64,000 nt of DNA. It comes from Carcharhinus longimanus. Taxonomy: Eukaryota. The position numbers and the translations under genes are program-made. The DNA lies in NCBI GenBank assembly GCA_030264375.1, contig JASCQW010000032.1, positions 70,508,581 through 70,572,580 on the forward strand, in the 5' to 3' direction. The notes beneath the pieces were generated by a model. It made no database searches and was not told where the DNA came from. It saw only the letters and a program-made list of their open reading frames with translations. Below, in pieces: positions 1 to 50,598 of the stretch (positions within the stretch are counted from its first letter, which is position 1; the number at the start of each line of letters is the position of its first letter).

Positions 1-304
1 AGTGTCCAGCAGCAGGCAGAAATTTTAACGTGGAATATTCCTACTCCTTCTTAAATCCATAATTGAATTCAGTTTCGGCACTGCCCTTTTCACCCAAGGC
101 ACTGAAAAGATTGTTTCTCTGCAGCCACTTTGGTTGTCTATGACCCCAAAAAGGGATTTTTAAGTGGAAAGATGTACACAAGCACCGACATGAATCATGC
201 AGGACAATGACGCCTCCATGGATCTTTGTGCCTATATTTGAAAAAGAATGCAGATAATTAATGCCGTACCATGGAGACAAAGGCTATTCAGTGAAGTCAT
301 TCCT

Positions 305-542
305 TGATGTGAAGATGCCAGTGTTGGACTGAGGTGCACACTGTAAGAAGTCTCACAACACCAGGTTAAAGTCCAACAGGTTTATTTGGAATCATGAGCT
401 TCCAGAGCACTGTTCCTTCATCAGGTGAGTGGAGAGGTAGTTTCACAAACACGGCAGATATAGGCAAAGACACAATTGCAAGATAATAGTTGGAATGTGA
501 GTTATCTGTAAAGATTTGCATTCCAACCATTACTTTCCTTGT
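305..542 (-). mobile_element. Penelope-like terminal-repeat fragment, family A, with degenerate hammerhead motif and terminal inversion
   Basis: Shared terminus GATGTG(G/A)AGATGCC...AACACCAGGTTAAAGTCCAACAGG. Direct repeat GTCATTCCTTGA at 296-307 and 543-554 (TSD, partly overlapping the terminus). Minus strand 428-392 reads TCAC CTGATGA A GGAAC AGT GCTCT GGA AGCT C ATGA. Segment ~485-503 is inverted again at ~513-532. Confidence 0.7.
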
Positions 543-781
543 GTCATTCCTTGAGGCATCCATGCACCAGTCATATCCAAACATCGAGAGTTTGTGTGAC
601 AAAGCTCAAACTCTGGAATTATCAATCATACAGTTGATGTTTTGAAGAAATGCTTGATGTGATCAAAGATAGCCCAATAGTTTAATCCATTCCCCCAGCG
701 AGGGATTTCAAAATAATTGTCATCTGCTCTACACTTCATAATCTCACCTTGCAAAGAATTCAGCATGCATTTTCTAATGAC

Positions 782-1829
782 TGTGTGAAGATGCTCACTT
801 ACCAGTTTAGGGAAAATATACTTCATTTATTTACATGGCTGCAATTAGCTCCCGCAATGACTTTGAGTACAGAAGCCCGCACTTATCAGAGTGATCCCCC
901 ATCCTGCCCCTCGATTGGTCCCCTGGATCATGTGACCTTTACTGTGCAGACTGACCCTTAAAGGAACAATCATCACATCCCTCCCCCTCTATGTCCCTTT
1001 GTACAAATGGCAGTGCTCAATTTATAGAGTCCCAGATAATTAAACATTTAATACATTTAATAGTCAATTAAAAATCAAGTCTTTCAAGATGTTTGTGAAC
1101 CCTTGTGGAGTGGCGTCACTCCTCTATCTGGGGCACTTCCACAGGTTTTTCTTCAGGCACAGGCAGTTCAGTTCTATCTGTTTCCATGGAGACATTAGTT
1201 GTCCCTGACCAGGTACTTCAGTGCTAAACCAGTCAAAAACATTCTCTGATGGCAATATACTTCCTAATAGCAAAATTGGCTGCTGGGACAACTCTTGTTT
1301 TCAGGTGATCTGTGTTTTCAGACAATCCTTCTTTCTACTTTGTCACTTGATAAAGATATGGGTCCAGTTTTAGAGACAATGATTCCAGAGACTCAACTTG
1401 ACCCACTATGACTGATGTGAATCATGGCTTGCCTTCTGACTGCTTTGACTAGCTCCTCCCTACCCCCTCGCTTCCCCTGCCCCCCCAGCAAACTTGCAAA
1501 CACAAGGCTGTCTTGTTCTGAGATAATGGTACATTAACAACTCTGCTAGCAGATCTCCCTTTATTAAATGTGAAGTGTGAGATTTTGGTCTTCAGGGTAC
1601 CTCCTGACTGCTTTTTTAAGCCAGACGTAGAAGTATGGATGGCTCGCTCAGCTAGCCCATTGGATGTCATACTCCTTCTAGATACCTTTGTGTTATTTTG
1701 GCTCTCAAGATGATTCTGAATATAGAAGCCTGTGTTTACCAGACTCATCCCCCACCCTGCCTCCCGACTGGTTCCCTGGATCATGTGACCCTTACTCTGC
1801 AGATTGATCCTTAAAGGGACAATCACCAC
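782..1829 (-). mobile_element. Internally deleted Ty3/Gypsy LTR retrotransposon relic
   Basis: ~130-bp direct repeat at ~845-977 and ~1697-1829. Putative 3' LTR 782-977 has TG...CA ends and AATAAA on the minus strand, preceded by polypurine tract AGAGGGGGAGGGA (978-990, minus). ORF 1449..1829 contains SNGLAERAIHT...GLKKQ, the end of the Gypsy integrase core (SNGxAER motif). Confidence 0.75.
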
Positions 1830-2199
1830 TGAGATAGCCAGGACATGGCAAAATAAGAAGGAGAAAGTGCCAATAATGAATTAGCAGAACTATCAGCAGT
1901 ATGGGAAGGAAGATTTGCATAACAGGAAATATTTCCCTGTGGCTTCCAGGGATTGTTACAGCTGCAACATTTCATTGGAGCAACTCAATTTGTCATGCCC
2001 AAACTAACCTTGTCATGCGTTTGCATAGTCAATTCTTACTTATTGGCATTTTATGTTGGGACCTTTCCAAATAAGAACCAAAGACAAACAAATACTCACC
2101 CAAAGTTAAAATGAAGTGTCGAGGCATTTATTTTATTTGTTTGTAGCTTGGGTTAGCGTTATGCTCCTTTGTGATATCTTTGCAGTGTTTCAGACTTGA

Positions 2200-2308
2200 G
2201 GGCTGGAACTTTACCATCCCACCCATCACAGGAATCAGAGCGGCGTGGGGTGGAGCTCAGGAGGGATTTTACAGTTTCAGGACAAGCAAGGCCATAAATT
2301 CCCTCCCC
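2200..2308 (-). mobile_element. MITE (non-autonomous TIR element), internally deleted copy of the ~125-bp family
   Basis: GGGCTGGAACTTTACC...ATAAATTCCCTCCC ends; reverse-complement similarity to 19676-19802. Confidence 0.55.
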
Positions 2309-5300
2309 TTAGCACATCTTAAAGGCTTCTCCTGTGCAGATAGTGCAAGTATTGACTGCGTCTAAGGTTTCACTGGGGGCCTGTTGAGATTCAAGGGGCT
2401 GTTACCCTCTCTGGGCTATAATATTGAGAGATTGGCCTGTGAGTTGGCTATGGCCAGGACTACAGCAATTGACCAATTTCCCCTCCAGTAAGTTTCCTGT
2501 CCCATACTTGGTGCACCAAGTGCTTATGGTGGGAAGGAAATGGAAATTAATCACTTAATTTGTGTGTCTTTCTTCCAATTCTCGTAAAACACATGCAGCT
2601 CCCGGTAAATCCAATTGATGTTTCTCTCAGAACTCAACAGCAAGTTGTTGAATAAGCATCCTCTGACCAATAGCCCAGGTTTTGAAAGATCATTGCTATT
2701 TCCTTTTCATTGACTCATCCACCATTGTGGGAAGGAATGCTTTTATTGATTGAAATTCTTGTGGACACAATAAGAAAGGCTTCCCCTGTACATTGTACAT
2801 GCTAAAATTGTAAGTGCATTTGTTAGGAACATACATACGATTTCAACGCTTCCCCTCCAGCGCTCCAGAATTTCTTTTTGAAAACCTGTTTCTTGCTGAC
2901 ATGCTGAGGACTGCAGGGCCTTATCTGCCTGCCTCAGCAGTGCCTACCGCTCCTGGTGGTCCTGTAGAGGTTGCTGAGCTGCCAGCCAGCTGATTATGTC
3001 AACAGCTGTCAGGAGGCAGGTGTGAATAGGACGTCCAGCCCAGTGACAGCCCCTAAAATGGCTGCCACTCATAAAATGACAGAAGGAACGTCTGCCATCA
3101 ATGGCACGTTTCTTTCAGACCGACAGCACAATTGGCAAAATTCAGCCCATCAATGTCTTCAAAGAACTGGATTCGTAGGTCATTGAAGTCACAAAATGTC
3201 GTAACTAGAATCAGCCATTTACAGTTGGAAATATAAGTATAGGTGTCCTCCAACATTAATGCAACTGGAAGAAAACGTTTCGACATTCCAGTCCAAAACA
3301 TAATTTTACATAATTTATCTTTCCTCTTTCAAGAGAAAAGTTTGGCTTTTAGGTACAGTGATGAAAGAATGTGATCATTAGACAGAAATGTCAACCATAT
3401 CATGAGAGTTGCATTACTTAAGGTTCGCAAGATCAAATTTGAGGGAGTTTTAAAACTGCTTTGTAGAAGGATTCAAGACAGTGGCAATGCCTGAGAAACC
3501 ACAAGATCTCTATGTTCGAAATATTATCTATTTGCTTGACTTTTTAAAATAAAACCATTTACCTGAAGAGCAACAATGACGAATGATTCAGTCTTAATGA
3601 AATCTCTTTATTCAAAATTAGTCTGTAGATCACAGTGATCAATTTTGTATACTTTTATCACAAATGGGAAGAGTTAAAGGTTTAATTTCCCCTTTCAGCA
3701 ACTGTGTAATACGTTTGGTTGTCTTGTGTTGCATAACATTCTTCTGCATGCTATTTTAATGCAATTGTTAGCCAATTAAAAATAAATAGGCCGGCAAATC
3801 GATTAAAATGATACACTACAGAGCTTAACACAAATGTGCTAGAGAAAATTAAACCCATTGGGGTAGTTTAGTAAAATAGACTTTGAAGGGTTAAATGACA
3901 ATTGCAAGATATATATTTGGCTTCAGTTAAAAAAAAACACTTAGAACGGATGACTAATTAACCTAAGTAACTTTAAACAGATATTTTATTGACTTGCCCT
4001 CTTTAATTAAGTAGATGTATTTCAACCCAGGTGAAAATTATCTTTTGAATTCACAGTTTATGGATGTATCACAGTTTGTGGATACCACATTTTAATTGCT
4101 TTTCCTTATACAGTTGCTTAACAAATGTTAACTGTGCATTTTAATCATTTCCTATATTCTTCATGCACATAACAATTTACCATGCAATAGAAGTTAAATA
4201 ATTTTCTCTGTTACAAACTTACTGCAAGTATAGCATTGCTAACAATCGCTATGGGCCATGCCTTATGAATCTATACTGTTGAACCAAAGAATCAAACCAT
4301 CAGGTTAATGACCAGTAAGTTTACGTCCTTCAAGACAAAAAAAAAACAATTTGCAAAAATAACCATATTTGGAATCTTTTAGAAGGTTAAACCTTTGTCA
4401 TTTTTGCCATTTCCCTTCCAATCTGGGAAGAAACAATAAAGAATACTATCTGACTAATTTCCATTTTATTATACAGTTTCAATCTCTAAGTGTAACACTG
4501 ACATTGTGTTGTAGAGGGGCAACACATTTATAGAACACTAGTTCTGTTCATTTTTCGATACCAACTCTGGACTGTTTAGGGCAGGAATATTTTGAAAGCC
4601 ATACTTTAAGTGGAGCATGTCCCTTTGCATCAAGTAATTTTTTTCATTCTCCAGATGTTTATCTCTGATCTGGTGTTGCCAAACTAGCAGAATTTTATGC
4701 TGAATACTCCCACTTCTGAAAGACTATATTTTGATTGCCAAAATTCATTTTATGTACAGTCGCCGATTATTGTAAGCAAGAAAAAATATTTTGTCATTCA
4801 CCCCACGGCTGGATTGAAAACATGATTTTTCTAAGTGAAGTACTGGGTCTTTGACCAATGTCTTCAGTCCACCAAATTATCTAGCCGTCAACAAGCTGCC
4901 ATTATTTTGTTTATAGGCCGGGTCCTCAGGTGGATTTAGAGAACTCCTCCATGTCTTTCCAAGCTGTTATTCTGGAAGAGAATCAAGGCAGCTGTGTTTA
5001 CTGCCTGGAACTTGGNNNNNNNNNNGGCATAAATTTACAAAAAAAAACTAGAATTTATATCATTTGGTATCACTGAGAGATCTCAAACCACCTGCCTATG
5101 TGACAAATTCACCCTATTGTGAGCTCGTTGTTAATGACATCATGCAATAAAGTCAACAATTCATGTTGATGAATTGAGGTTTTATGAGCATTGCTAAAAG
5201 ATATACCCATAAAGGAAACATCACAGTACACTGCTTTCACCAATGAATCAGTTTTTTCAGAAATTAGAATATGTGAATCCTGACCTGCAACCCTAGAAAT

Positions 5301-6937: not shown

Positions 6938-6971
<34 letters not shown>

Positions 6972-12870: not shown

Positions 12871-12894
12871 AAGGGGTTTGTTCAGGCAAAGGGT

Positions 12895-18026: not shown

Positions 18027-18268
18027 ATAGAATCATTAAATCTACAATGCCCATCAAGCCTGCACTGACAACAATCCCACTCAAGTCATATACCCATAAC
18101 CCCACATATTTACCCTGCTAATCCCGCTGATACTAAGGGGCAATTCAGCATGGCCAATCAACCTAACACGCGCACCTTTGGATTGTGGGGGGAAACCAGA
18201 GCACCCGGAGGAAACCCATGCAGACACGGGGAGAATGTGCAAACTCCACACAGACAGTGACCAGAGGC
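18027..18268 (-). mobile_element. HE1-type shark V-SINE (5' head lost in gap)
   Basis: GGAAACCAGAGCACCCGGAGGAAACCCATGCAGACACGGGGAGAATGTGCAAACTCCACACAGACAGT V-domain; CR1-type tail ending in ...ATTCTA. Confidence 0.85.
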
Positions 18269-23460: not shown

Positions 23461-25041
23461 TTGTTTTTTTCCAAATCAGAGGGACAGCAGAACATGAAGT
23501 CAGAAAGTGTCTGAAAGTCAGGGCTGCGCGAGGACTGTGTGGGATTGTTGACATCTGCTGAGGTGGGAGAGATCAGTAAGCAGGAAATGGGGTGTCACTC
23601 CTCGTGGTAGTTTGCCATTATCTTGGCATTTCTAATGAAGTGTCTGCAGCGCAGAGCCTCTGGATGGCATCTTAACGCACGGATAAGCAAAAGCACTTCT
23701 CCCCCTTGTCACTGTCATCCATCTGCATGCACCCCTACTGCAGCCAATGGGATGGAACCGGGCTACTACATTCAGTAAGCCATTTAGACTTTATGCATCA
23801 CATGATCGGTCACACCAAATATGAAGGAAAAAATTGTATTNNNNNNNNNNNNNNNNNNNNNNNNNNNNNNNNNNNNNNNNNNNNNNNNNNNNNNNNNNNN
23901 NNNNNNNNNNNNNNNNNNNNNNNNNNNNNNNTGAGAAATTAAATTTTAAACTCCTTTTAATGTCTTTTTGTGAGGAATTTTATGGTGACAACTAATTTTA
24001 CAAAACATGACTACCGTCTCATTTGTAGACAGAGTATTAAATTATTCAATTAATAATGCACCATAACAAAAAGTACCTTAATATTCTGTTTGAATAATTT
24101 AATGTTCAAATTTTTTTCTTTTTTTTATTTCTATTGTTGCGGCAAATCACAGTAAATAAAAATGATTAGCTAGGTGGCGCAGTTGACTCAGACCTGGGGA
24201 GCAATCCAGCCCAGGGTAAGTACATGGAAGGCTGAGTTGCTGTTATCATTCACAAGTTGACAGGAGTTTGCCACATTGTAGTCAATCTGGATTCAGGGTC
24301 AGGTTCAGGTTCAATGTGCGACTGTTGGATTCCACGCAGACAAGTGACTATTATCTTGGTAAAATGGAAGACAGCAATGAGCAACTTAATGGATACATGC
24401 CATTACTTTTGTGGCATGTAACAGCATGTGCCCAGATGCTCATACATGGTGGCACAACAACCCCCTGCCAGCACCCAGCAATGATACTCCTCTGAGTTTA
24501 TCTCTTCAAATGAATTCAAACTGATACTCAATCATCTTCCGCGCCCACTGGAACACTACTCCAGGATTGTGAGTGAAAGTTCCCAAGATTCAGTGTGAAT
24601 TAACATGTTGTGGGCAAAACGCCAAAGCACAAATTAATTGAGTATTTCATTAAGTTGTACTGTATACCAGGTTGTGAGTCTGATGAACTGGGTGAGACCT
24701 CTCAGTTACGCCCTCAAAATAAATCTCAATGGAACACTCAGTTAGCTCTCAACGGAACGGTGCTCCTTTTGGGTGTCCAGAAATTACTGACTAATTCACA
24801 TCTTCTTCAATGTGTTCCTCCATTGGTTTGGGAGTAAGAGGTGGTATGCTGGTGTACTTCAGGCAAGGGCTCTTGAAATAGTGATGGTTACTAACCTCAG
24901 TGAGCAAGCAGAGGCGTGAGGTGACTCAACTAATACCGCACCAATCTGGTGACTGCAGGACTAGCCTGAATCTGATACCCTGTGGCATCTGTGCACTCAC
25001 TCGTTGTGGCAGCAGTTACATAATCTGTTGTCAAAGAACAA

Positions 25042-25170
25042 GATGTTGGACTGGGGTAAACACAGTAAGAAGTCTCACAAAACCAGGTTAAAGTCCAACA
25101 CGACTCACNNNNNNNNNNCGCGACCAAGTAAGCCTGTTGGACTTTAACCTAGTGTTGTGAGACTTCTTAC
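25042..25170. mobile_element. Family A Penelope-like termini in inverted orientation with 13-bp TSD
   Basis: CAGTAAGAAGTCTCACAAAACCAGGTTAAAGTCCAACA, then a short gap, then its reverse complement. TGTCAAAGAACAA at 25029-25041 and 25171-25183. Confidence 0.75.
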
Positions 25171-25310
25171 TGTCAAAGAACAACACAGGACACGAACAGG
25201 CCCTTCAGCTCACCAAGCCTATGCTGACACATGACATCTTTCTAAACTAAAGACCTGTTGCCTCTACAGGTTCCATTTCCGTCTATTCCCTGATCATTCA
25301 TGTATCATCC
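25171..25310 (-). mobile_element. CR1-type LINE 3' end
   Basis: AAAGAACAA tail followed by ACAGGCCCTTCAGCTCACCAAGCCT, the reverse complement of a CR1 3' stem-loop/tail. Confidence 0.55.
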
Positions 25311-29079: not shown

Positions 29080-29293
29080 ATCTGGGATTGAGTATCTACT
29101 GATGATTGTCGGAAAAACCCATCTGGTTCATTTATGTCCTTTCGGGAAACCTGCTGACTGTATCTGATCTGGCCTACATGTGGCCTCAGAGCCATAGCAA
29201 TGTGGTTGACTTTCAACTGCCCTCCAAGGGCAATGAGGGATGGACAATAAATGCTGGCCAACCAGTGACTCCCATGTCCTGCAAATAAAAAAA
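29080..29293 (+). mobile_element. tRNA-SINE family C, 3' part
   Basis: AAAACCCATCTGGTTCA...GGCCTACATGTG...CAATAAATGCTGGCC plus A-rich tail; same sequence at 32313, 32700, 61437 and 62898. Confidence 0.75.
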
Positions 29294-29383: not shown

Positions 29384-29625
29384 GATGTGGAGATGCCGGT
29401 GTTAGACTGGGGTAGGCACAGTAAGTAGTCTCACAACACCAGGTTAAAGTCCAACAGGTTTATTTGGTAGCACAAGCCAAAAGCTTTCGGAGCACTGCCC
29501 CTTCATCAGTTGAGTCCCTTTACTAATTGAGTCCCTCACCTGATGAAGGGGCAGCACTCTGAAAGCTAATGGCTTCTGCTACCAAATAAACTTGTTGGAC
29601 TTTAACTTGGCATTGTGAGACTTCC
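29384..29625. mobile_element. Inverted pair of family A Penelope-like termini carrying two hammerhead motifs (one per strand)
   Basis: Arm ~29423-29513 is the reverse complement of 29536-29625. Minus motif: TCAA CTGATGA A GGGGC AGT GCTCC GAA AGCT TTT GGCT T GTG. Plus motif: TCAC CTGATGA A GGGGC AGC ACTCT GAA AGCT AAT GGCT T CTG. TTGAGTCCCT is duplicated in the spacer (29510, 29527). Confidence 0.8.
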
Positions 29626-29640
29626 CGCTTTAGAACAACA

Positions 29641-29951
29641 GGGGTAGCACAGTGTTACAGCAGTTAGCACAATTGCCTCACAGTGCTAGGGACCTGGGTC
29701 CAACTCCAGCCTCAGGTGACTGCCTGTTCTACCTGCGTCTGCATGGGTTTCCTCTAGGTGCCCCGGTTTCCTCCCAAACTTCAAGGATGTGCTAGTAAGG
29801 TTTGATTGGCTATGCTAAAAAGAAAATGCACCTTAGTATCAGGAAGGATTAACAGGATAAATATGAGGGGTTACAGAGATAGGTCCCTGGGTAGGATTGC
29901 TGTTGATGCAATGGGTTCAATGTCTCCTTCTTCACTGTATGGATTCTATGA
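29641..29951 (+). mobile_element. HE1-type V-SINE, full length
   Basis: tRNA-like head, V-domain (TCTGCATGGGTTTCCTCTAGGTGCCCCGGTTTCCTCCC), tail CACTGTATGGATTCTATGA. Confidence 0.85.
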
Positions 29952-32312
29952 ACAGGGTGTTCATGCAATGTCATATAAAATATATTATCAGGTTATAGAC
30001 TAGCAAAGACTGAATAAGAAAGTTGGGAGGTGCTGTGCACCAGATAGGAGCATCTAACAGGAACAAGGTGGCAAAATGTGGTCCAGAGGCATGTGGAAAA
30101 TGAGAAAACAAGAGACAGATTATCCAGCCAAAGATTCAGGCTGAAAAGAGCCAGAATGAAGCTGGGGGTCTGTCGATGACATGTGAGAGGCATTAGATGC
30201 AGAAACCCATGACCTGGGACAGAGTTGTGAAAAGGGAAGTTTTACCATTGAGTAATAGGAGATGGGTTTCGAAGTTTGGGATCACTCACACAGCTTGGTG
30301 CAAACAGAAGAGTGAGCAGCAGAATCCACAGAAGAAAACAAAGGGAAATGGCTGTTTATTTTGTTTGATTGTTTTGAGCTCTTTCTGAGGTACATATGGG
30401 GTGCAAGCTCCCCAAAATTACTCAAACTTCTCAAAACAGCTGATCTCTACATATAGACCCATTTTTTGTGGGGGATGCAGGAGGTGTGGGGGTGGGAGGG
30501 ATGTATGGGAGATGTGGGGAGGTGCAGGAGGCTCTCACCCTCTTGCAGTTGGAATTGGTGCCCATGCCCTCTGCCCTGAGAAGGGGCACATGGCAGAGGG
30601 AAGTGCTGCTGGTGTTACTCCTGAAATTTTTGGCAGAAGCGCCACCTCTGATCATGCCCGCTAGGGGTGGAAGGTAGAGCTGCCGTGGTGACAGGGAGAT
30701 GCTGCCAAAGGTGAGTTAATGGCTGGAAAGGTGAAACAGTTGGCAGTCACCCTCTCAAGTTTGGTAGCACTCTCTCAGAGAGAAAATGCTTTGAATTGTA
30801 ACTTCTCACCTGGCCACAGCCCTTCAATGTAAGTGATCCCAACCTACTCTACTTGCTAGTTTCACTGAAGGATCTCCTCCCACTGTGCACTCACCTCCAT
30901 TACTCTGACAAGTCGCAGAAGGTCAGAAAACAGATTCGCTGTTTGGGAAATCCAGCATTCAGGGTTACATCAGATCTTAATAGTCATCTTAATAACCTCA
31001 ACTCTTCCTCGATTACTTCCCCAACAGATCCAAGGACGCTCCCTGCTTGTCTGCAATCCCATCCTGGGGAATGGCAACAGTGAAGGGGATGATGTTGGGA
31101 TCCGGAGCCTAATATTAATTTCTGGGCTATCTCACCCCTTAAATTCTGCACCCAGCCTCCCCCAGGCTGGGAAAATTCAGGCTATGGAGTGTTTTGTTTT
31201 CCTCTTGTGCAACCATAAACGTGTCAAAGATTTTTAAAGCAACAGTTTCTTGGAATTGCATGAAGCTACACCACCCATTCCTTTCTGAAATAGGACTGAG
31301 GTGTTAAAAAAAAGTCTCAAGAGATCAGTAAGCACAGGTTTCTTAAGATGAAAATGTAATCGAATATAGTGAATCATAGATTTCAGAACTGGACAAATTC
31401 CAGTTAAATAAATAAGGGACTCCTACTCACGAAGTTACTTATCGATCAAGTTATCCAATCTGAAAAACATAATCTCAATTATGGATAGCGGATCTCCTTT
31501 TAACTATGTCTATATTCAGATCTTGGAAAGGGTTCAAGTATAACTCCAGGTGAGGGAAGCAGGCAGTATTGGTTAGCTGCAAGACTGGATATTATAACCT
31601 GACTGAAAAGATTAATAACCTGGGTTTAAATGCTGGGGACAAGAGATTGGGCTGCTTGAGAAGTAATAGGCTAGCAATGTTGGAAAGTTTTCAGATGTAT
31701 CGGCAGAGGTAATCATTTAGAAACTGGCAGCAAGCAATTTAACCAACTATGGATGTGAACTTTGCAGACTAAATGCTGTCTCGTCACTGAGCATTACACA
31801 GTGCGCACAAAGAGATGGGGGATTTCTCCATTTGAAACAATGAAGAACACATCTGGCATAGTAAAGATTAGCACTTTACAATCTTATTACAAACTGACAG
31901 CCACTGCAACATTTTACTTTTGGTCCGAATGACTTTGGCATACTGTGCAGTGCTCATCCACTATGATTTGTGAATTACATCTCTTTATCCACATTATTTC
32001 TCATTTTTGCTCCTCAGTTTCTCTAAGGGAGGGAGGAGGATGGAGAATCTTAATTTTGCACAGAAGGTCAAGAGAAAGAGAGGGCATTGAATTGGTGCGA
32101 TTACCAAGCTTTGAACCCACAATGGATAAATATTTAAAAAGTTACTCACCACTTGGCAATGGAGAATCTCTTAGAAACCCGCCTCCCATTAACTTTGACT
32201 CACTGAGAAATGATGCTTCGGTTTAACCAAAAAAGGAATAAAATACATCTCTGAGCAGATGGAGGAGCTGATGTGAAAGGCTAGAGATGTAATAACTCCC
32301 AAAGGATCAAGT

Positions 32313-32620
32313 GGAGGTGGTGGCATAATGGTATTGTCACTGTTCTAGTAATCTAGAGACCCAGGGCATGATCTAGGGGCCCGGGCTCAAATCTCAACAC
32401 AGCTGATGGTGAAATTTCAATTCAATTAAAAAGTGACCATGTAGTCAGTCGTAAAAACCCATCTGGTTCACGAATGTTCTTTGGGGAGGGAAATCTGCCA
32501 TTCCTGCTGGGTCTGCCCTATATGTGACTCCAGGCCCACAGGAATGTGTTTGACTCTGAAATGGGGTGGGAAATAAATGCTGGCCCAGCCAGTGATGCCC
32601 ATAAAATGAATAAAACAAAA
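32313..32620 (+). mobile_element. tRNA-SINE family C
   Basis: Head GGTGGTGGCATAATGG (A box) ... GGCTCAAATCT (B-box-like); body AAAACCCATCTGGTTCA; A-rich tail. Confidence 0.8.
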
Positions 32621-32699
32621 GGATCAAATGCAATGAACAAAAATCTAGGAAATATTGGAGATGGATCATTTGCTTCTCGTTCCCCAAGGTGGAAACAGT

Positions 32700-33057
32700 C
32701 TTTATTTTATTCACTTGTGGGACATGGGCACCGCTGGCTGGCTGGCATTTATTGCCCATTCCTAGTTGCCCTTGGAGAGCAGTTGAGAGTCAACCACATT
32801 GCTGTGATTCTGGAATCACATGTAGGCCAGACCAGATGGCAGATTTCCTTCCCGAAAGGACGTCAGTGAAGCAGATGGGTTTTTCTGATAATCAGCAATG
32901 GTTTCATGCTCATCAGTAGATTCTTAATTCCACATATTTTTTAATCGAATTCAAATTATACCAGCTGTCGAGGTGGGATTTGAACCTGGGTCCCCAGAAC
33001 ATTAGCTGAGTTCCTGGATTAATAGTCGAGTGAAAATAGCACTAGGCCATCGCCTCC
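32700..33057 (-). mobile_element. tRNA-SINE family C, inverted relative to the preceding copy
   Basis: Reverse complement of 32313-32620, with B box GGTTCAAATCC on the minus strand. Confidence 0.85.
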
Positions 33058-33166
33058 TCTCGTCACTNNNNNNNNNNNNNNNNNNNNNNNNNNNNNNNNN
33101 NNNNNNNNNNNNNNNNNNNNNNNNNNNNNNNNNNNNNNNNNNNNNNNNNNNNNNNNNNNNNNNNNN

Positions 33167-35301: not shown

Positions 35302-35352
35302 ACTGTGTTTCATTAGTGGCAGACACAGGTTCCAACATGAGATTAACTTCAG

Positions 35353-35683
35353 GAATCATAGAATCATTGAATCCCAGAATCCCTATAGTGCAGAAGGAGG
35401 CCATTTGGCCCATCGAGTCTGCACCAAACACAATCCCATCCAGCTCCTATCCCAGTATCCCACGCATTCATCATACTACTCCCCTAATACTAAGTGGCAG
35501 TTTAGTGTGGCCAATCTACCTAACTTGCATATCTTTGGACTGTGGGAGGAAACTGGAACACCCGGAAGAAACCCACACATACACGAGGAGAATGTGCAAA
35601 TTCCACACGGACAGTGACCCAAGGTGGGAATCGAACCCAGATTCCTGGCACTATGAGGCAGTAGTGCTGACCACTGTGCCATC
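35353..35683 (-). mobile_element. HE1-type V-SINE, full length
   Basis: GAATCATA-type tail repeats, GAAGGAGGCCATTTGGCCCATCGAGTCTGCAC, V-domain, B box GGTTCGATTCC on minus. Confidence 0.9.
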
Positions 35684-37758: not shown

Positions 37759-37794
37759 AGTGAGTCAATCTTCTACCTACTATTTTTTTGAATT

Positions 37795-38207: not shown

Positions 38208-41165
38208 ACAAAAAAGTACTCCTTGGAAGCACATGGACTATTCTTTTTACATAAGGACCACTATATGAACATTGGATGGTATAAAGTCAAGCAGATCAAG
38301 GAGATGCTAAGTTCCATTTTGATTGCCTCAGCCCAGACAGCATTGTATTAACCGACACAGTATTTGAACTCAGTTCAGATGCCTATGTTTGATGAGGACT
38401 GGAGAAAGTTTGGTTGCTGTGGCTAACAGACTGTCTAGATACCGAGGCGAAAGAGAGAGAAACACCAGAAGGTCGCAATTAAACAAGGAGACATACTCCA
38501 GCAGAACTCACTACCTTATGCAAAGGTTAGGGAAGACAATTTGAGGTAATGTTGGACAAGTAATGAAGGCACAAGCATGTATACAGAGTCACAATCAGCT
38601 GAGATCAATGTGGGTTTGTTAGTTCAGCACCATGGGCTAAAAGATTGCACTTGTTTTAGTTGTTATACTAGGCCGAAAAGACAAGACTGGCTGCATTTGA
38701 CCTAATGTTTTCTAGAATAAAGCTTATCAAATAAAAAAAATCACAAATACAAGCACATGGACATTATATCCCACCTTTGAAAAATTACATCCACTTGCAT
38801 TACTTAACAGATATAATGAAATAGTTGTCCAGTTAAAATAAATAAAAAATTTGATTTAAAAAAAAACTCCACGACTCCAGTAAACTGTGCAGAGTACAAG
38901 GTGAAAGTCATAGCCCAGTTACAGAGTCAGAGGTTATTGTGTGTAACCTTAGGTACTGGATGCCATTTAAATTCCAAACCTGATTTTTCATACTTCAGAC
39001 TAGTCTCCCTGAAGATGATCAATGTGTCCAGGAATAAACAATAGTCTATTTATCAGTTAAGTTGACTCCATGAGACAATTTGGAAATTTTGTAACAGATC
39101 TCCCATAGTAAGGTCTCATAGTAAGACACAGAATCTATCATTTCAAAAAGAAAAGAACATTCACCAAGTAATGGACTAGCCTGTTGCAAATTTGGAACTA
39201 GAAATAATTTGGACTATCATTTTAAGGTCACAAGGTTCAATTAGACACATTGCAAGGTTAATTAAAAACAAATGGTTGGCTCATAAACTTATCAAAAATG
39301 TGACAGAAATTTTGCACGAGGTGACAAAATGTGACATTGCAAAATGTTGGTATTTTTATAGTTTTTATCCACAATAAAGCTATTGGTTTGAACAGCATTA
39401 ATCCTTAGGAGCATAGCATTTAACTTGTGCTCTGCGTAGTCACCTCATCGAAACCAATTTGAATAAGAAGATGATGTGCGGTGGCTCCAAAGTCTCTCAC
39501 ATGGAGGGACAAGGAACATTAGGGCATAGGATCACAACTGGTCAATCCTTTGTATCCTTTGGTAGATTACCCTGGGTTATTGGTCGTGGAGTAAGCTAAG
39601 TACCCATCTTCTCAGCTGTAACAGTGTCATTTGAGGCAGTTAAACAAAGGGGTTAAATTACAGAGGGCAATAGGGTGACTGTTACTTGAAAGCTCTCCCA
39701 TAAAAAGGAAAGCTTTAAAACTCCCACTGACCTGCCAATATCAGTGCAACATAACATCCTCACAATCACTTGTGTAATAGCTTTTGTGCATTCAGGTTGA
39801 AATAAATTTGGTAGATAGCTACACTGCAAAGAAAACAGATATTTAAAATCCAAGAAATTAAAACATTATGGTGTCCTGTCACGAGTTAGAATTCAGAGCA
39901 GGTTGTTAAAAACTGAAAAAAGAGGGATAATGTGTTGAAGGAAAGGATGTAGATTTGAACAGTGAAAGCTTCTTTCTTCTCATTCTGAAAAGGAAACCCA
40001 AAGTGCTCTCCACTTTTAACACAATGTTCAGTGGTGACCTGCTGAGGTGACATCTTTAAAAATAATTGTCTACTTACCATTAGATGCAGTCGTAGAAAGT
40101 TTTACAGGAAGCACGAAAATGGTCTCTGAAAAACTGGCCTCAGCAGGATTGTGTGAAAGAACAAAACAATGTGACTGGGTGATTTATAACAAAAAAAAAG
40201 TATATAGTAAGTAGAATTTTCTACCTAGCTGCAAGCCATAATTCATACTGATCTCTTATCAAGATAAAGTACCTTTTCTCTGAATGATCTGTGTGGTTAA
40301 ATGATTTTGATAAATGCCAGTACATAACAGGTAGCTGCTTCACAAACAATCAAGATAAAGTAGGCTTACTGGGAGACGAATGGTAAATTGCATTCCTTGG
40401 CTATGTTTAAAGCTGTACAATTTCCTTATCAATGGTACAGTCTGCTGACCTCAGGTGGAGTTGTTGTAAGATGAAAGAAGCCTTGATTATTCATGCTCAA
40501 AATGCAGTCAATTTTTTTGCAGTGAATAGCAGAATTTCAGCTGCACAAATGTTCCAAAATTACTACTTTTACAGCATTTTGTAGGTTGCTGGAAGATATT
40601 AAGAGTGCTTAACTACAATGGTCATTAGCATGGAAACTTTCAATTTTGCCAATGATACTAACACCAGTTTTATCCCGACTAAGCCCTTACATCAGGAAGG
40701 GGCCAACAGTGAAAGTGACATGAAATGTGTGGACTTGAGGCCAAGCCATTCCAGCAGATTCCCAATGTAATTTCACTGGAAATCCATTAAATTGGCTGAC
40801 AACTAGGCTGGAAGCCGGTTATGCCAGATCCCAGCCGAGTGCTGAAGTTTCCAAGATAGTTTTGTGTGGGTAGAGTGAATCACATCTGTCCTGTTCAAAC
40901 TACTAAGTAGCCTAATATTGGTGTCAAACAACTACTGAGAATATTTGTAGTATGGCTCCTTTGATTTTGATGAGAAATGGATGAGGAAATAATGATTTAA
41001 TGGGACAAAGGAATGGATCAAAAAGGAGTAATCTAATTGAGGGGTTTAAAAGGCATCATGGACTATTACAGTTTCATCCTCTTAGACACATCACTGACAA
41101 ATATCTGTTCTAAATACACCAGATGATAAATGTTTATATTTGAGGGTTTTGGAAACAAAATTTTG

Positions 41166-41310
41166 TGCGGCGCGGTGGCACAGTGGTTAGCACTGCTGCA
41201 TCACAGCACCATTGACCCGGGTTCAATTCCCGGCTTGGGTCACTGTCTGTGTGAAGTTTGCACATTCTCCCTGTGTCTGCGTGGGTTTCCTCCGGGTGCT
41301 CCGGTTTCCT
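41166..41310 (+). mobile_element. V-SINE 5' half (runs into gap), little decayed
   Basis: GGCGCGGTGGCACAGTGGTTAGCAC (A box), GGTTCAATTCC (B box), V-domain; CpGs retained. Confidence 0.9.
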
Positions 41311-42069: not shown

Positions 42070-42272
42070 CAACAGGTTCTGGCTGACTAGGAGACTCTCC
42101 TGCTGTTACCACCTGCATAAACATATTGGAAGGATTTGTAGTTTGATATTCAACCAATTTTTCCATGTTGTGAACACATCTTCAGTGGGCACCAAGCCCT
42201 GGAGTGGGATTTGAACCCAGAGTTTCTTTTTCAAGTGTAGAGACGCCTCTACTGTGCTACAAGGCACCCCTC
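42070..42272 (-). mobile_element. tRNA-derived SINE fragment (another family)
   Basis: Minus strand B box GGTTCAAATCCCACTCCAG and A-box-like TGTAGCACAGTAG. Confidence 0.55.
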
Positions 42273-43171: not shown

Positions 43172-43611
43172 GGAGTAAATTTTCTGATCCCACCCACGGG
43201 AATCATAGCGGATAGGAGTGAAAATTTGGCGGACCGTTTGGGCAGCACGGTGACACAGCGGTTAGCATTGCTGCCTCAAAGTGCCGGGGCACAGGTTCAA
43301 TTCCCAGCTTGGAACACTGTCTGTGCAGAATCATCACACTCTTCCTGTGTCTGCATGGGTTTCCTCTGGATGCTCCGATTTCCTCCCACAGTCCGAAAGA
43401 TGTGCTCGTTATGTGCATTGGCCATGCTAAATTCTCCCTCAGTGTACCCAAACAGGCACTGGGGTGCAGCAATTAGGGGATGTTCACAGTAATTTCATTG
43501 CAGTGTTAATGTAGGCCTACTTGCAACACTAATAAATAAACTTTAAAAGGCCTGTTGACCTCAGGCAGAAATTTCCAGTCTTGGGGTGCACGCGGCCAGG
43601 AAATCCCATCC
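43172..43611 (-). mobile_element. MITE family copy split by a SINE insertion
   Basis: 43172-43239 and 43546-43611 join into one reverse-oriented copy of 19676-19802. Confidence 0.7.
43240..43545 (+). mobile_element. V-SINE with a non-HE1 3' tail
   Basis: Same head and V-domain as the HE1 copies, but ends ...TTCATTGCAGTGTTAATGTAGGCCTACTTGCAACACTAATAAATAAA. Confidence 0.85.
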
Positions 43612-44533: not shown

Positions 44534-44934
44534 GTAAGCACTGAAATATTTATTTCTTATTCATACATCTTAGCATGCATGCTTCATTCCACAAATTTAA
44601 ACTGTGTTACAGAAATTGCAAAATTTAGGTATTTTGTGCCTCCTATTACCATGGGAGATCTCACTGGCTCATTATGCACCAGCAGTATTCTAAATGCAGT
44701 CTTTAAAATACATTACTAGAAATAGTGAACATAAAAAATATTTCTGCTATTGTTATAATGTCATTAATACCAAGTAATCTGGAGAAGACTTCCTTCCAAA
44801 TGTTATAGTTAGTATTAAAAACAGAAAGACACTTATTCTCAGGGTGACAGTAGTGACAACAAATATCAAAAACTTGCATTTATATAGTCCCTTCAATGAA
44901 TAAAGGTATCCATAACTGTTTATAGAAAGTGTAA

Positions 44935-45061
44935 TGATGTGGAGATGCCAGCATTGGACCGGGGTAGGCACACTAAGAAGTCTCACAATACCAGGTTAAA
45001 GTCCAACAGGTTTATTTGGAATCACAAGCTTTCAGAACGCTACTGCTTCATCAGATGATTG
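44935..45061 (-). mobile_element. 127-bp family A Penelope-like terminus with hammerhead motif and 14-bp TSD
   Basis: TATAGAAAGTGTAA (44921-44934) and TATAGGAAGTGTAA (45062-45075) flank TGATGTGGAGATGCC...TCATCAGATGATTG. Confidence 0.8.
45020..45060 (-). ncRNA. Minimal type I hammerhead ribozyme motif (activity unknown)
   Basis: AAUCAU CUGAUGA A GCAGU AGC GUUCU GAA AGCU U GUGAUU. 6-bp stem I, intact CUGAUGA and GAAA, palindromic AGCU as stem III, UH cleavage site. Stem II has a C-C mismatch and wobbles. Confidence 0.6.
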
Positions 45062-45624
45062 TATAGGAAGTGTAAGACGGAATGAATACCAAGACAAGGG
45101 ATGAGTTATTAGGGGGAACAGTCAAAAAGATGCATTTTAAGGATTCTTAAAGAAAGACAGCAAAGTGGACAGGCAGAGGGATTTAGAGAAGGAGTTTTAG
45201 AACATGAAACCTTGGAAGCTGAATGCATGACAGTAAACAATGAAGCAAGTGAGGAGATGATGCACAAGTGGCTGGAGTTAAGGCAACAGATAGTTTGGAT
45301 TACTGTTGTATGATTAGAGAGTTAAAGAGATAGGAAGGGATGAGACAACAGTTGTACTCAAACAGAAGGATAAGGATTGTAAGTTTTAGGCATTGGAGAA
45401 CTGTGGAAGTTATGCAGGCCATTGATAAAGGAATTGATGAACGAGAAGCTGTAGGATAGTATGCAATCAGACTAGTTTTGGATGAGCTGAAATTTATGAT
45501 GGAGCTAGACAGTGGAGAATTAGAGTGATCGGTCCGGAGGAGACAAAGACATGAATCTGAGCATCAGTGGCAAATACGATGTGGTAGAGAATCAGACAGG
45601 TTAGGGATTCAGTGCTTCAATGCA

Positions 45625-46622: not shown

Positions 46623-46744
46623 TATAGACAGATTTGTAGATAAATTTATAGACAGGTTCTGAGGCATGATTCTTTGTATTAATATCAATTATCTACTTTA
46701 TTGATTATCTTGTCTACAATAAGTTGTCAGTTTGATTCTGTATC

Positions 46745-46845
46745 AGAGAATCCCGACAGCGCAGAAGAAGGCCATTTGGCCCATCGAGTCTGCACTGACT
46801 CTCTGACACAGTGTCTTACCTCACCCTACCCCTGTGACCCTTCTC
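46745..46845 (-). mobile_element. HE1/CR1 3' tail fragment
   Basis: AGAATCCC...GGCCATTTGGCCCATCGAGTCTGCAC, as at 35375-35425. Confidence 0.7.
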
Positions 46846-47295
46846 ATTGGTCCCTGGTCTTTGCTCACCTAACTGATTGCCACTGGGGTAGCAACAAGGT
46901 TCCTCCAATTGGCTTAAGTGTTCCTAAGCTACGAAACAGAGCCAAGAGCCTGTGCAAAATATTTATGGATGTCAAGTGAGGGCTGTGATGCACCTTTTAG
47001 TTAAATCTTCTGATGACACCTGCTCTTCAGACTTGCAAATGGAAAATAGTCATTTGTCTGAATTACACAAGAGCTGCTATCATTAATGTGGGCATGCCCC
47101 CAGTGTAAACTAATACATTGAGCCGAAGAACGGAGAAAATTGGATGGGTTTGTGGTGGGAGGGAGAGGAGAGAGAAGAGAGATGGCAGCACAGGAAAAGG
47201 GTTTAAATATCAAATTCTGAGATGTGTAAGTACAAGCTCAAATTTACATCACTGGTGTTTTGCTCTGGTCACAGGAAAGGTTGAGATCTACTCAT

Positions 47296-48180
47296 GCCAG
47301 GTGGATCTTCCAGTCCTGATGATAACGCATCCGCATCGTGAGTTTAGCAGTTGCATGGGGTGGATTCAGTGGGAAATTCCATTGACAGCAGCGGAACCAG
47401 AAGATCCTGCCACCGGCCAATAGGGGAGTCGCCTCCCACTGCCGAGAAACACGCCAAGGGGAGACCAGAGAATCTCACCCATGAATGAGAAAATAGAAAT
47501 GTTGGATGAAATTCTCTCATTCCCCAGCCAACAGGATCAATGGCGGGCGGGGAAGGAGAATACAGTGGGAGTTATAAAAATCGGTTTCACACTGGCATGA
47601 AATTACAGTAGGATTTTCCGATGCTGTCCACCATGGTGGATTGGAATTCCCACTCGAGGCCAGCATGAAACTGATACGCTTGTCAAAGAGCGGAGTAATC
47701 ACCCCCAATCCACCCCCCCCCGCACCCAATTCTCCATGTTGCCAAAACACACCAGTCCAGAACACCCCTGTGTCAACTTGGGATGCAAAGATTGGGGCTT
47801 TCCTGAATAAGGCCCAGAACTGCCTCCAGGGTTTGGAATGGAAGCTGCCAGCAGCACTGAACCCTGGGTCACCACAGCAGTGGGTGGGGAGGGTGTCAAT
47901 CAGATAGATCTTCCAGTTTCAATGTTCTCATGGATGTCTGCCTTCCAGCCTCAGGGTGTTCCTGGAGATTCATTGACTTTCTTCAGGAGGTTTATCTTCT
48001 TTCTCCTACAGTGAGTCAGCAGTGTTGGCCACCTTATAAAGATGGTGCAATACCCATTGTTGCACAATTAATTACATGGGGGCCAGAAGATATGGCCTAG
48101 TTCCCCATTGACTTACACAGTGGGAAATACTCCCTTTTCCCATCCCCATCACACTCCCAGATGAGAGAATTCCACCGATA
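47296..48180. mobile_element. Cluster of GC-rich TIR-element (MITE/Harbinger-like) remnants
   Basis: 47296-47480 ends AGAATCTCACCC and is reverse-similar to 50599-50795. 47503-48180 is bounded by GGATGAAATTCTCTCAT / ATGAGAGAATTCCACC inverted repeats. Confidence 0.5.
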
Positions 48181-48654
48181 GGGTACCAATGGATTGCCCT
48201 TGGAATTGTGCAAGGGGAGCAATTATAATTCAATTCACTATCACACCTTTTAATGATCACACAAACGTCAAAATTACTACTGAGGAATCAGATCAACTGT
48301 GACTGCCAGGTGAAGAAGGGTAAGAAGCCAGAGATATTTGATCCAGAGCATGCAGATATAGTTCAGTTCCCATTTCAAAGTCATACGTTCTCTCCTTACT
48401 TTAATCTGTCAGTTATAAATCCAATATCAATTTTCGATTGAAACCATCTGTAAAATTGCCCATGTTGTAATTATATCCTCCTATCAGTGATGGCACTGCA
48501 CAACGAGTTTACAAAGGCAGTTTCGATTATTAATCTGAAAATAGGAATTCATAATGAAAGCAGTTGAACTTAAGCGTGCGTATATGTAAGTTTTTTTTAA
48601 GACATTAAACTCCTATGGTGTTGATAGATAATTAAGACCAGGTATAGCTCATTT

Positions 48655-49022
48655 GACTGGCACATACATTCATTCCCTCCACCACCAACAAACATTGGCA
48701 AAAGTGTGTACCACCTACCAGATGCATTGCAGGGACTCACTAAGGCTCCTTCAGCATCACCTTCCAAATTCACGGCCATTATTATCTAGAAGGACAAGGG
48801 CAGCTGACACATGGGAACCCAATCACCTGGATGTTCCCTTTCAAATCACTCACCATTCTGACCTGGAAATACATCGCCATTCCTTTACCGTCGTTATGGG
48901 TGTACCTAAGCCATAGGAACTGCAGCAGTTGAAGAAGGCCACCACCTTCTCGAGCAATTAGAGATGGGCAATAAATGCTGTCTTAGGCACCGACATCCAC
49001 GTCCCTGAATTAATTTTAAAAA
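48655..49022 (+). mobile_element. CR1-clade (L2/Crack-like) LINE 3' end
   Basis: ORF 48653..48916 IHSLHHQQTLAKVCTTYQMHC...RRTRAA...HRHSFTV resembles a LINE ORF2 C-terminus; tail GATGGGCAATAAATGCTG; second copy at 57395-57958. Confidence 0.7.
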
Positions 49023-49038
49023 GCCTCTCGGTGAAGCA

Positions 49039-49235
49039 TGATGTGGAAATGCTGATGTTGGATTGGGGTGGACAAGATAAGAGGCACATGACACCAGGTT
49101 ATAGGTTTCTTTGAAATAACAAGCTTTCAAAGTCACTTCAGGGAACTTCACCTGACAAAGGAGCAGCACCCCAAAAGCTTATGATATCAAATAAACTTAT
49201 TGGACTTCAACCTGGTGTTGTGTGACCTCTCGTCA
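49039..49235. mobile_element. Family A Penelope-like inverted pair, older copy, 9-bp TSD
   Basis: GGTGAAGCA at 49030-49038 and 49236-49244. Plus-strand motif 49148-49184 TCAC CTGACAA A GGAGC AGC ACCCC AAA AGCT T ATGA has lost G8 and G12. Confidence 0.7.
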
Positions 49236-50598
49236 GGTGAAGCAGGGTAGGAGTGTTTGGACCAGGGCATATGGACATGAATAATTTCCTAGTTTTAGAG
49301 TATAATAGTCTTTGCTTTTATATTATTATCATCAATTAATACATTGGAAACCTCTCATGCAAAAATAATCCACATTGTGGTTACACTGTCCCACCAGTGG
49401 TGGTGCTGTACCATCTCTGCAGGAACCAGAGTACAATTCATGCATGACAATTTTATGTAAGTATTTTCCATTCTACATGTCATCTTACTCCATTTTAATT
49501 TACAGGAAGCTTGAGCTGACCTGAATATTTCAGTAAATTATAGATAGTCATAGATGAATTAAGGGTGTATTGGTAAATTGTTGCAATCCCCNNNNNNNNN
49601 NNNNNNNNNNNNNNNNNNNNNNNNNNNNNNNNNNNNNNNNNNNNNNNNNNNNNNNNNNNNNNNNNNNNNNNNNNNNNNNNNNNNNNNNNNNNNNNNNNNN
49701 NNNNNNNNNNNNNNNNNNNNNNNNNNNNNNNNNNNNNNNNNNNNNNNNNNNNNNNNNNNNNNNNNNNNNNNNNNNNNNNNNNNNNNNNNNCTCCTTGCTT
49801 ATACTGTACTCTGTACCTTAAGTGGATTCTTCATTCTCCAGAAACCAAGCTGAAATTATTCTCAGCTCCTGCTGGTTTGCTTCCTTTTTCCTTTTTCCAG
49901 ATGGATAACTTCTATTCTGTGAACTGAATCTCGGTGAAGTTTACTCTAGCTCTGGCCAAAACTAGGTGAATCTTCCAGCCTTGTTTAAATCCTCACAAAC
50001 TGGGTCCCATCTAGCTGAGGGTGAGCTCCCACCCACATTGTATGTGGTGAACTCTAGAAACTAGCTGCCTCTTTCCTCTGTTCTGTCTCTTTCTTTCTCA
50101 CTTTTAGGTCCCTGCAGGCTGACCGCTATGTGAATCTCTTCAGAAAAACTCTATAATCTGATACTGCAATGGTTGTAATGGATTCTTGCCCCCTCTAAGC
50201 CCATCGTCATATTAACAACAATCACACAGGCCTTGTTTCCAAGCAGAAATTCTAATTAGCTATCCTCTAGATCCCCAACTTTATTCCATTTTGGAATTAA
50301 ATAGTTCAAAAAACTGCTTGCAAAAGCTAACCTTCCTAACACCCCCCTATGACTTAAAGATTAACTATCTATCAGCTATTGGCACAGCATCTGGTCATTG
50401 TTTACAATGTGAATATCTCGCATCTTCTGTCCAGTAAGACAACATTGCCCCACACCCCACCTTTAACTTTTAACAACCAAACCACCCAAGCTCGTTATCG
50501 AGCAGAATTCAGAACAGGTCACATGACTCCTCCATTCCTCCATTTTATCCTAATTTAAAGAGACAATCCTACAACATAACAATCTTGCAAACTTCATG

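Follow-up and report, generated by a model that had tools for sequence, protein, structure and literature searches.

The closest described relatives of the repeat family reported here are the EN+ Penelope-like elements (PLEs). According to the available sections of PMC8557442 and PMC3846280, the Neptune clade of these elements carries a single ORF in which a reverse transcriptase (RT) is followed by a C-terminal GIY-YIG nuclease, together with a CCHH motif and a CX2-5CxxC linker. The same sections describe insertions with 5' truncation, partial tandems and an adjoining inverted copy, a 30–40-nt tail at one end, and target-site duplications (TSDs) of variable length. The shark family resembles them in each of these respects. 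For the pseudo-LTR (pLTR) of the rotifer element Pen2a, a putative TATA box and an Inr-like word are also described there.

Minimal hammerhead ribozymes have been reported, in the portions of the minimal-hammerhead literature available, from Xena, Poseidon and Neptune elements of fishes, the coelacanth (~4,000) and Xenopus (~9,000). The known motifs have the same core boxes as those described below, with one extra nucleotide after position 9 and before 10.1, a G10.1-C11.1 pair, a palindromic 15.2-16.2 and a 4-bp helix I. They likewise form several consensus families per genome and occur mostly as single motifs in truncated copies. Both the family and the ribozyme motif presented here are of a known kind, the hammerhead being a known PLE feature. 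From their sequence, the five inserts may be regarded with good confidence as the clipped, partly inverted ends of a protein-coding shark PLE, likely of Neptune type. That confidence applies to the explanation as a whole, namely origin from the element, likely insertion by its RT and nuclease, and decaying passenger hammerheads; within it, the run-off idea set out below has about an even chance.

Five dispersed inserts in the window

The window is a 64,000-nt stretch of the Carcharhinus longimanus genome (GCA_030264375.1, JASCQW010000032.1:70,508,581-70,572,580, forward strand). The original prediction was of a repeat family with copies at 305, 25042, 29384, 44935 and 49039, numbered here 1 to 5. 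The family is real; the copies align with one another at 69–91% identity and have a common terminus. Copy 2 is shortened at that terminus as described, with ~17 nt missing rather than ~10. Neighbouring copies are at least 4 kb apart with no tandem arrangement. Their parts are as follows.

296..305, plus strand: left TSD of copy 1 (right partner 543-552)
306..503, minus strand: main arm of copy 1, a pLTR end; tail terminus at 306, continuing into the upstream pLTR for at least 76 nt beyond the hammerhead core
392..428, minus strand: minimal hammerhead of copy 1, decayed, with C3 at 424; A13 is changed and pairing in the stems partly lost
455..462, minus strand: what remains in copy 1 of a conserved TATA-like box, located 31-38 nt upstream of C3; putative promoter role
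503..545, plus strand: inverted internal pLTR piece of copy 1
25029..25041, plus strand: left TSD of copy 2, 13 nt exact (right partner 25171-25183)
25045..25101, minus strand: arm a of copy 2, a pLTR end with ~17 nt of tail missing; stops before the hammerhead
25103..25174, plus strand: inverted tail-less arm of copy 2; by eye starts 6 nt before the expected C3
29384..29515, minus strand: arm a of copy 3, a tailed pLTR end; stops 6 nt upstream of C3
29477..29513, minus strand: hammerhead of copy 3 arm a; C3 at 29509, H17 = U at 29481, core intact, both stems paired
29534..29624, plus strand: inverted tail-less arm of copy 3; starts 5 nt upstream of C3 (29540), with an intact core and damaged stems
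44921..44934, plus strand: left TSD of copy 4, 14 nt with one mismatch (right partner 45062-45075)
44936..45061, minus strand: single tailed arm of copy 4; ends 7 nt upstream of C3 (45054), right at the TSD, with an intact core and a decayed stem II
49030..49038, plus strand: left TSD of copy 5, 9 nt exact (right partner 49236-49244)
49040..49140, minus strand: arm a of copy 5, diverged and tailed; CUGAUGA box lost
49148..49232, plus strand: inverted tail-less arm of copy 5; starts 4 nt upstream of C3 (49152), G8 and G12 changed

With one mismatch allowed, TSDs were recovered for four of the five copies, in agreement with the prediction. The exception is copy 3, for which the search returned 5 nt at best and inspection by eye found none beyond the adjoining repeat. 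The TSD of copy 1 measures 14 nt (296-309 / 543-556), its left match extending 4 nt into the element, and that of copy 4 is 14 nt with one mismatch. With one mismatch allowed, those of copies 2 and 5 reach 15 nt (13 exact) and 11 nt (9 exact). As a control, 500 trials with random position pairs produced three matches of at least 11 nt. The predicted inverted second piece was also found in four copies (1, 2, 3 and 5); that of copy 1 (503-545) is internal to the pLTR and supplies no second end. In copy 2 the expected hammerhead position coincides with an N gap (25109-25118), and in copy 3 the inverted arm and arm a are predicted to pair as a single long hairpin.

A protein-coding source element

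The proposed origin from a PLE pLTR is borne out elsewhere in the genome, where copies of the same end are joined to an ORF with RT and GIY-YIG. The best genomic matches to copy 3 run, on the hammerhead-sense strand, into frames for RT (YIDD motif) and GIY-YIG. Pfam RVT_1 was identified in one of five genomic fragments (E = 1.4e-7), with one more below the cut-off and three without a match. Pfam names RVT_1 only, GIY-YIG (PF01541) appearing solely among the precomputed domains of more distant homologues. The motifs of RT (DKG, YIDD) and of a C-terminal GIY-YIG within one ORF were read by eye in loci L024, L010 and L003 and in the homologue P0003. The CCHH zinc finger, whose definition in the available part of PMC8557442 places two cysteines between GIY and YIG, is present in the alignment and in P0003. 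The CX2-5CxxC linker between RT and nuclease takes the form C-x4-C-x2-C in L003, P0003 and P0022; in L024 the final cysteine is changed. On the basis of these motifs, the element likely belongs to the Neptune clade. No reference named Neptune, Nematis or Poseidon was among the 120 homologues listed, and a PDB sequence search with P0003 gave 0 matches at E ≤ 0.01.

The end is present in 18 of 20 RT-anchored 10-kb stretches and lies directly after the ORF C-terminus in 8 of these. One locus (L101) is composed of an inverted pLTR, the ORF, a pLTR and a partial tandem. At 29 of 30 ORF-start loci the tail adjoins the start codon, and, by eye, the ORF N-terminus at those loci looks like the beginning of a full-length homologue of 881 aa. 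Read in the RNA sense, the source element runs from the stop codon through ~180 nt to the TATA-like box and the minimal hammerhead, and then, after a further ~100 nt, through the ~35-nt tail to the start codon of the ORF. The TATA-like word is readable on both strands.

By extrapolation the family is very abundant, with roughly 1.3 x 10^5 insertions dominated by a discrete ~130-nt class. Truncation and inversion, in line with the PLE habit that had been invoked, were observed both in the window copies and in the sampled genomic arms. Both orientations were detected in 17 of 51 sampled insertion groups, an undercount in which window copies 1 and 5 were missed.

Arm ends and the origin of the short class

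The starts of the arms are bimodal, 51 of 126 falling at positions 1-3 and 36 of 126 at positions 36-39; a copy thus sets out from the start codon or from a point ~35 nt ahead of it. Nucleotides matching the start codon (1-3 nt) are retained in 36 of 44 tailed arms, and inverted arms are usually devoid of the final ~35 nt, which correspond to the known PLE tail. Among sampled arms that reach the core, 20 of 38 end 0-9 nt upstream of it, compared to 24/387 in other bins (Fisher p 2e-12); the two arms of a single insertion are non-independent, and the ends of local alignments may be off by a few nt. These counts derive from 79 sampled arms, minus 5 with an alignment score <50 and 2 duplicates, with arms cut by N gaps censored. 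The clustering persists without the window arms (16/33 vs 24/355 in other bins) and among position-ordered pattern matches (5/14 vs 15/172, p 0.009; 60 pattern arms, minus 2 duplicates). A second pattern set, mostly at assembly gaps, adds little. Clustered ends occur in all subfamily classes, 16 of 25 at inversion joints and 9 as plain ends. No cluster was seen in the cleavage-site bin (1/50 and 3/90), and templates generated by cleavage were rejected on the latter count. A spliced template was also rejected, as the clustered ends have no common following sequence and no sense-strand AG.

In 38 of 50 upstream strings, a TATA-like word lies ~30 nt before the commonest ends, which are 6 nt upstream of C3. 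This spacing suggests that the short units may be run-off cDNAs of the mRNA leader. The inserts were likely written into the genome by the element's own RT and nuclease. If the related element in the available sections of PMC11167929 is a guide, the nuclease would nick the target and RT would start within the RNA at two sites, one per strand, to give one arm with the tail and a second, inverted arm without it. For the common ~130-nt class, RT would start at the start codon and run off the 5' end of an mRNA beginning ~7 nt upstream of the core. Longer copies would derive from the downstream pLTR or from read-through RNA, and the templates were likely uncut by the ribozyme. About half of the ends stop before the motif, which may well be because the element copies only a short front piece of its RNA. 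That the ~130-nt class arises by RT run-off at the mRNA 5' end is considered here to have about an even chance. The fuller version, in which members of the class are complete leader cDNAs that RT begins at the start codon and carries through to a TATA-directed transcription start ~7 nt ahead of the hammerhead, is put forward more tentatively. Should it hold, tens of thousands of shark inserts would record the PLE transcription start and both RT start sites base by base, and the ribozyme would stay uncut at the 5' tip of the mRNA during copying. A leader-sized product without cleavage-site ends would explain the abundance of single minimal hammerheads in metazoan genomes.

Given the same element origin, the cluster could instead be produced by RT stalling, or by resection or joining of cDNA, at the 5' edge of a folded or protein-bound hammerhead. 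This is a possible, if rather doubtful, account. It fits the position of the cluster on the 5' strand of helix I, the scatter of ends over about 10 nt and the share that inversion joints contribute. Further, only 2 of the 10 ORF-start loci with an upstream part reaching the core end in the 0-9 zone by eye, which is fewer than the start-site idea predicts. By reasoning, however, an RT arriving at this point would already have unwound stem II and displaced helix I. Few ends fall inside the stems (hazard 0.04-0.11 per 10 nt), and the observed end position is the one predicted by TATA spacing.

The original prediction had also raised a separate non-autonomous retrozyme or SINE-like family. The short units would then be pLTR-derived and self-propagating, mobilised in trans and possibly processed by the ribozyme or passed through circular RNA. 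The discrete size class, the two partial tandems of short units (L083, L168) and the greater frequency of short copies in subfamily class B (11/15) than in A (6/20) are compatible with such a family, as is a report, in the available part of 10.64898/2026.07.22.740005, of PLE-derived retrozymes in vertebrates including one chondrichthyan. Short copies also show some clustering on a poorly resolved tree of 97 columns and 50 rows (11 changes vs 16.8 shuffled; 2 of 500 shuffles as low). On the same tree, however, supported branches force at least 3 label changes, and a single change occurs in 0 of 200 bootstrap trees. Short arms sit beside long copies in all subfamily classes instead of forming one clade, the same end is joined to the ORF, arm ends lie away from the cleavage site, and the sequences beyond those ends are unrelated among copies. 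The window copies are dispersed. A tandem array of two or more hammerhead units was absent from the window, and the sampled loci contained only the partial tandems L083 and L168. A separate family is thus unlikely.

The hammerhead motif and its counterparts in known elements

In the source elements, exact core matches and compensatory changes in stem II bear out the predicted minimal type I hammerhead architecture. The motif is spread genome-wide, with 20,914 exact core matches compared to 2 in the control. An extra A follows A9 in 109 of 111 fetched loci, and H17 is not G in 106 of 111. The expected covariation in stem II appears as an excess of pairing over shuffles, inflated by kinship among the sequences, at pair 3 (106/111 vs 99.1 shuffled; 0/2000 shuffles) and pair 4 (91 vs 83.8; 4/2000). 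Pair 2 has no excess in the fetched loci (85 vs 85.9 shuffled); by eye, A-U replaces G-C there in 11 of 100 listed matches. The compensatory changes fall between subfamilies. Pairs 1-4 of helix I are paired in 87, 98, 99 and 78 of 111, nearly invariant and not exceeding shuffles. The A-U first helix I pair in arm a of copy 3 was considered as a compensatory change and counted as chance, because A at 2.1 is mostly unpaired elsewhere (A-G in 6/111).

Six window arms span the motif. The core is kept in three of them (both arms of copy 3 and the arm of copy 4), and both stems remain paired only in arm a of copy 3. Among sampled arms the core is intact in 16 of 32, and in 7 of 32 when G10.1-C11.1 and AGCU are included. 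Of about 32 arms, 9 have a changed G12 and 12 a changed C11.1, the essential G12 being lost at a CpG-like rate. The motifs are likely decaying passengers of the inserts. The earlier idea that the family seeds ribozymes across the genome holds for motifs and not for ribozymes proper, because copies are single or antisense-paired and G12 is lost in a CpG-like manner. In folding calculations, which take no account of tertiary contacts or protein, the double hammerhead as drawn came to -12.7 kcal/mol vs -6.7 per monomer, and the best two-strand fold (-29.0 kcal/mol) pairs the stem II strands. An Rfam scan of the whole window and of the best arm identified no hammerhead family at E ≤ 10. Rfam hammerhead models expect a stem III, and the motif here has none. 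Rfam miRNA-like matches at 25066-25169 merely reflect the inverted arms of copy 2.

It is very improbable that the inserts form a genome-wide regulatory layer whose active hammerheads cut host RNAs, since the number of exact core matches and the one window arm with both stems kept are set against CpG-type loss of G12 and C11.1, the scarcity of fully intact arms (7/32), the absence of cleavage by a lone min-HHR and little by dimers (PMC4209133), the protein requirement of the anole PLE ribozyme (PMC11167929, available sections), and the predicted pairing of the arms of an inverted insert (-144.9 kcal/mol, z -17), by which the motif would be buried.

The main gain from this study is one of annotation, a very abundant shark PLE with a motif that Rfam misses. 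The clustering of ends is weightier, as it bears on how PLEs make pLTRs, tails and inversions, and on the role of the hammerhead. Compared to the EN+ PLEs, the shark family stands out by its extrapolated ~1.3 x 10^5 insertions, mostly of the discrete ~130-nt class; the available sections of PMC8557442 and PMC3846280 describe no comparable end clustering. The count of exact core matches exceeds those published for PLE minimal hammerheads in the sources at hand, and stem II is 3-5 bp as opposed to the 7-8 bp given there for Schistosoma. No sharks are named in the available parts of the minimal-hammerhead survey or in two of its supplement files.

Animal non-LTR retrozymes (PMC7229834; bioRxiv 10.64898/2026.07.22.740005, available parts) also combine a type I hammerhead with PLE-pLTR-related sequence. 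Those retrozymes form tandem arrays of non-coding units, for which PMC7229834 (2020) gives canonical hammerheads and circular RNAs. The shark copies differ in being dispersed, bounded by TSDs, arranged head-to-head and continuous with a coding element. A further comparison is with the Poseidon element PAc of the green anole (Frangieh et al. 2024, PMC11167929). In the available sections of that study, two internal RT start sites define the tail, as proposed here, and uncleaved RNA is the main template with no reads ending at the cleavage site, a further likeness to the shark element. The PAc ORF begins within its hammerhead, and RT sets out from >110 nt past the ORF start. The shark element, by contrast, has its hammerhead ~100-125 nt upstream of the start codon, which would itself serve as the outer RT start site.

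Origin and abundance of the inserts

The five short inserts lie at 305, 25042, 29384, 44935 and 49039 of the window, as originally predicted, and align with one another at 69–91% identity. Target-site duplications (TSD) of 9–14 nt were confirmed for four of the five; random position pairs reached 11 nt or more in 3 of 500 trials. An inverted second piece is likewise present in four of five.

Beyond the hammerhead, many of the best genomic matches extend into frames encoding reverse transcriptase (RT) and GIY-YIG, in the same sense as the hammerhead. The end common to the copies, a terminus of the pseudo-LTR (pLTR), is present in 18 of 20 RT-anchored stretches, directly past the ORF C-terminus in 8, and lies directly 5' of the start codon at 29 of the 30 loci that were anchored at the ORF start. 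One genomic stretch (L101) reads inverted pLTR, ORF, pLTR and partial tandem, which is the Penelope-like element (PLE) layout as drawn in the literature. Among named proteins, the closest matches come from sharks, with 78% to a Mustelus protein. The predicted PLE origin, with its linkage to an RT and GIY-YIG ORF, is thus borne out, and the window copies almost certainly originate from a protein-coding PLE. Pieces of the element's nuclease also occur in predicted shark host proteins (P0005, P0007, P0009, P0012, P0013, P0019 and P0021; septin 5a, XRCC5, USP8 and others), and may be gene-model artefacts or exonisation.

As an alternative, the inserts had been suggested to be a non-autonomous retrozyme or SINE-like derivative. 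The short arms, units of ~130 nt ending just upstream of the hammerhead core, do cluster somewhat on the tree (11 changes versus 16.8) and are commoner in subfamily class B, but they are not one clade: at least three changes are forced, and one change sufficed in 0 of 200 bootstrap trees. With the end joined to the ORF and the copies dispersed as well, a separate family is unlikely.

Exact matches to a 24-nt piece of the PLE end number 28,755 genome-wide, and those to a variant of it 14,937, with 0 in either reversed-pattern control. The hammerhead core pattern with G10.1–C11.1 has 20,914 genomic matches versus 2 in its control. A sample of 1.064 Mb chosen without regard to the repeat comprised the window, 200 kb of neighbouring sequence and 80 stretches placed at round coordinates, with 969,705 non-N bases in all. 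It contains 51 insertion groups, or ~53 per Mb, and extrapolates to a genome total of roughly 1.3 × 10^5 insertions. For the second 24-nt variant, most copies (genomic stretches L201–L230) continue into assembly gaps, which suggests a young subfamily beyond the assembly's resolution; their stem II is unlike that of the window copies.

Other features of the window

18049–18268, 29632–29949, 35376–35681, 41162–41310, 43237–43445, 55654–55947, 60432–60578: second dispersed repeat of ~300 bp, from self-comparison
32310–33060: long decayed inverted repeat (63% self-match), with related pieces at 29100–29293, 61438–61658 and 63019–63123
42128–42200 (−): weak Rfam match to the CPEB3 ribozyme (18.8 bits, E 2.8, gathering 35)

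The ~300-bp repeat has a tRNA-like head, with a weak Rfam match at 41177–41241, and is probably a tRNA-derived SINE. The 29384 insert directly borders one of its copies, a possible reason for the lack of a visible TSD there. The inverted repeat is possibly a DNA-transposon derivative, and the CPEB3 match is probably due to chance.

Conservation and decay of the hammerhead

The predicted hammerhead is legible in the window copies but decayed, with the core kept in three of six spanning arms and both stems in 29384a only (arm a of that insert). An Rfam search did not detect the motif in these copies. Covariation, proposed as a test for both stems, was found in stem II: among 111 distinct strings with an intact core, pairs 3 and 4 have two-sided changes and are paired more often than in shuffles. 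Helix I is nearly invariant and uninformative. Pair 2 has two-sided changes only among the listed core-pattern matches (11 of 100, by eye). The stem II changes fit selection on the hammerhead in source elements.

In about 32 inserted arms, G12 is changed in 9 and C11.1 in 12, the two forming a CpG, and the hammerhead is fully intact in 7 of 32. Folding predictions give a single long hairpin for an inverted insert. Minimal hammerheads, in the portion of PMC4209133 available, did not cleave as monomers and cleaved weakly as dimers. The inserted copies are best regarded as dead passengers. On the antisense strand, the 5' edge of the hammerhead often reads like a consensus splice donor, with CAG followed by GTRAGT (window 422–430 (+), and the corresponding position in other copies); a copy antisense within an intron could affect host transcripts.

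Starts and ends of the inserts

Arms start at positions 1–3 in 51 of 126 cases and at positions 36–39 in 36 of 126; in an inverted pair, the two arms are usually of different types. In a minority layout, the tail (the last ~35 nt) is on both outer ends (genomic stretches L145:2509–2773, L159:1970–2138 and L115:8634–9857). Because 36 of 44 tailed arms retain 1–3 nt matching the start codon (all three in 10), the outer RT start site predicted by analogy for the shark element is the start codon.

Ends were counted per arm, and two arms from a single insertion do not count as independent. Of 38 arms at risk, 20 end 0–9 nt upstream of core position C3, versus 24 of 387 in the remaining 10-nt bins between −50 and +99. 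This clustering persists without the window (16/33 versus 24/355), is weaker in position-ordered pattern matches (5/14 versus 15/172) and is seen in all subfamily classes; the cleavage-site bin has 1 of 50. Inversion joints make up 16 of the 25 clustered ends and plain ends 9. Within the window, 29384a, 29384b, 44935 and 49039b end 4–7 nt upstream of C3, as apparently does 25042b (by eye).

A TATA-like word 31–39 nt upstream of C3 is conserved across subfamilies amid variable neighbours. With the usual TATA-to-start distance of about 30 nt, the predicted start is 6–8 nt upstream of C3, the commonest end position. It is proposed that the word would direct mRNA initiation there, and the short class would then consist of run-off cDNAs of that mRNA's leader. 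Such a run-off step has about an even chance of being the source of the short class; counting against it, only 2 of 10 ORF-start loci reaching the core stop in the 0–9 zone (by eye).

Earlier publications already describe hammerheads at PLE ends, as well as tails, inversions and mass single copies. No shark case of hammerhead-bearing Penelope ends was found in the literature searched; a 2026 preprint (10.64898/2026.07.22.740005), in its accessible part, describes tandem retrozymes in one chondrichthyan, and its supplements may list the present family. Clustering of insert ends upstream of the hammerhead was likewise not found in the PLE literature searched, including sections of PMC11167929, PMC8557442 and PMC3846280. 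The element protein has a DKG motif, YIDD, a C-x4-C-x2-C linker and a CCHH nuclease, a combination given for Neptune-type elements in part of PMC8557442; by these motifs the element is likely of Neptune type. The tail of the shark copies is equated with the 30–40-nt tail of an anole element, which an excerpt of PMC11167929 traces to two internal RT start sites. As for the TATA-like word, a rotifer pLTR has a putative TATA and an Inr-like word (PMC3846280, in part); the internal promoter of Drosophila Penelope is described as TATA-less in the available text of PMC2377424.
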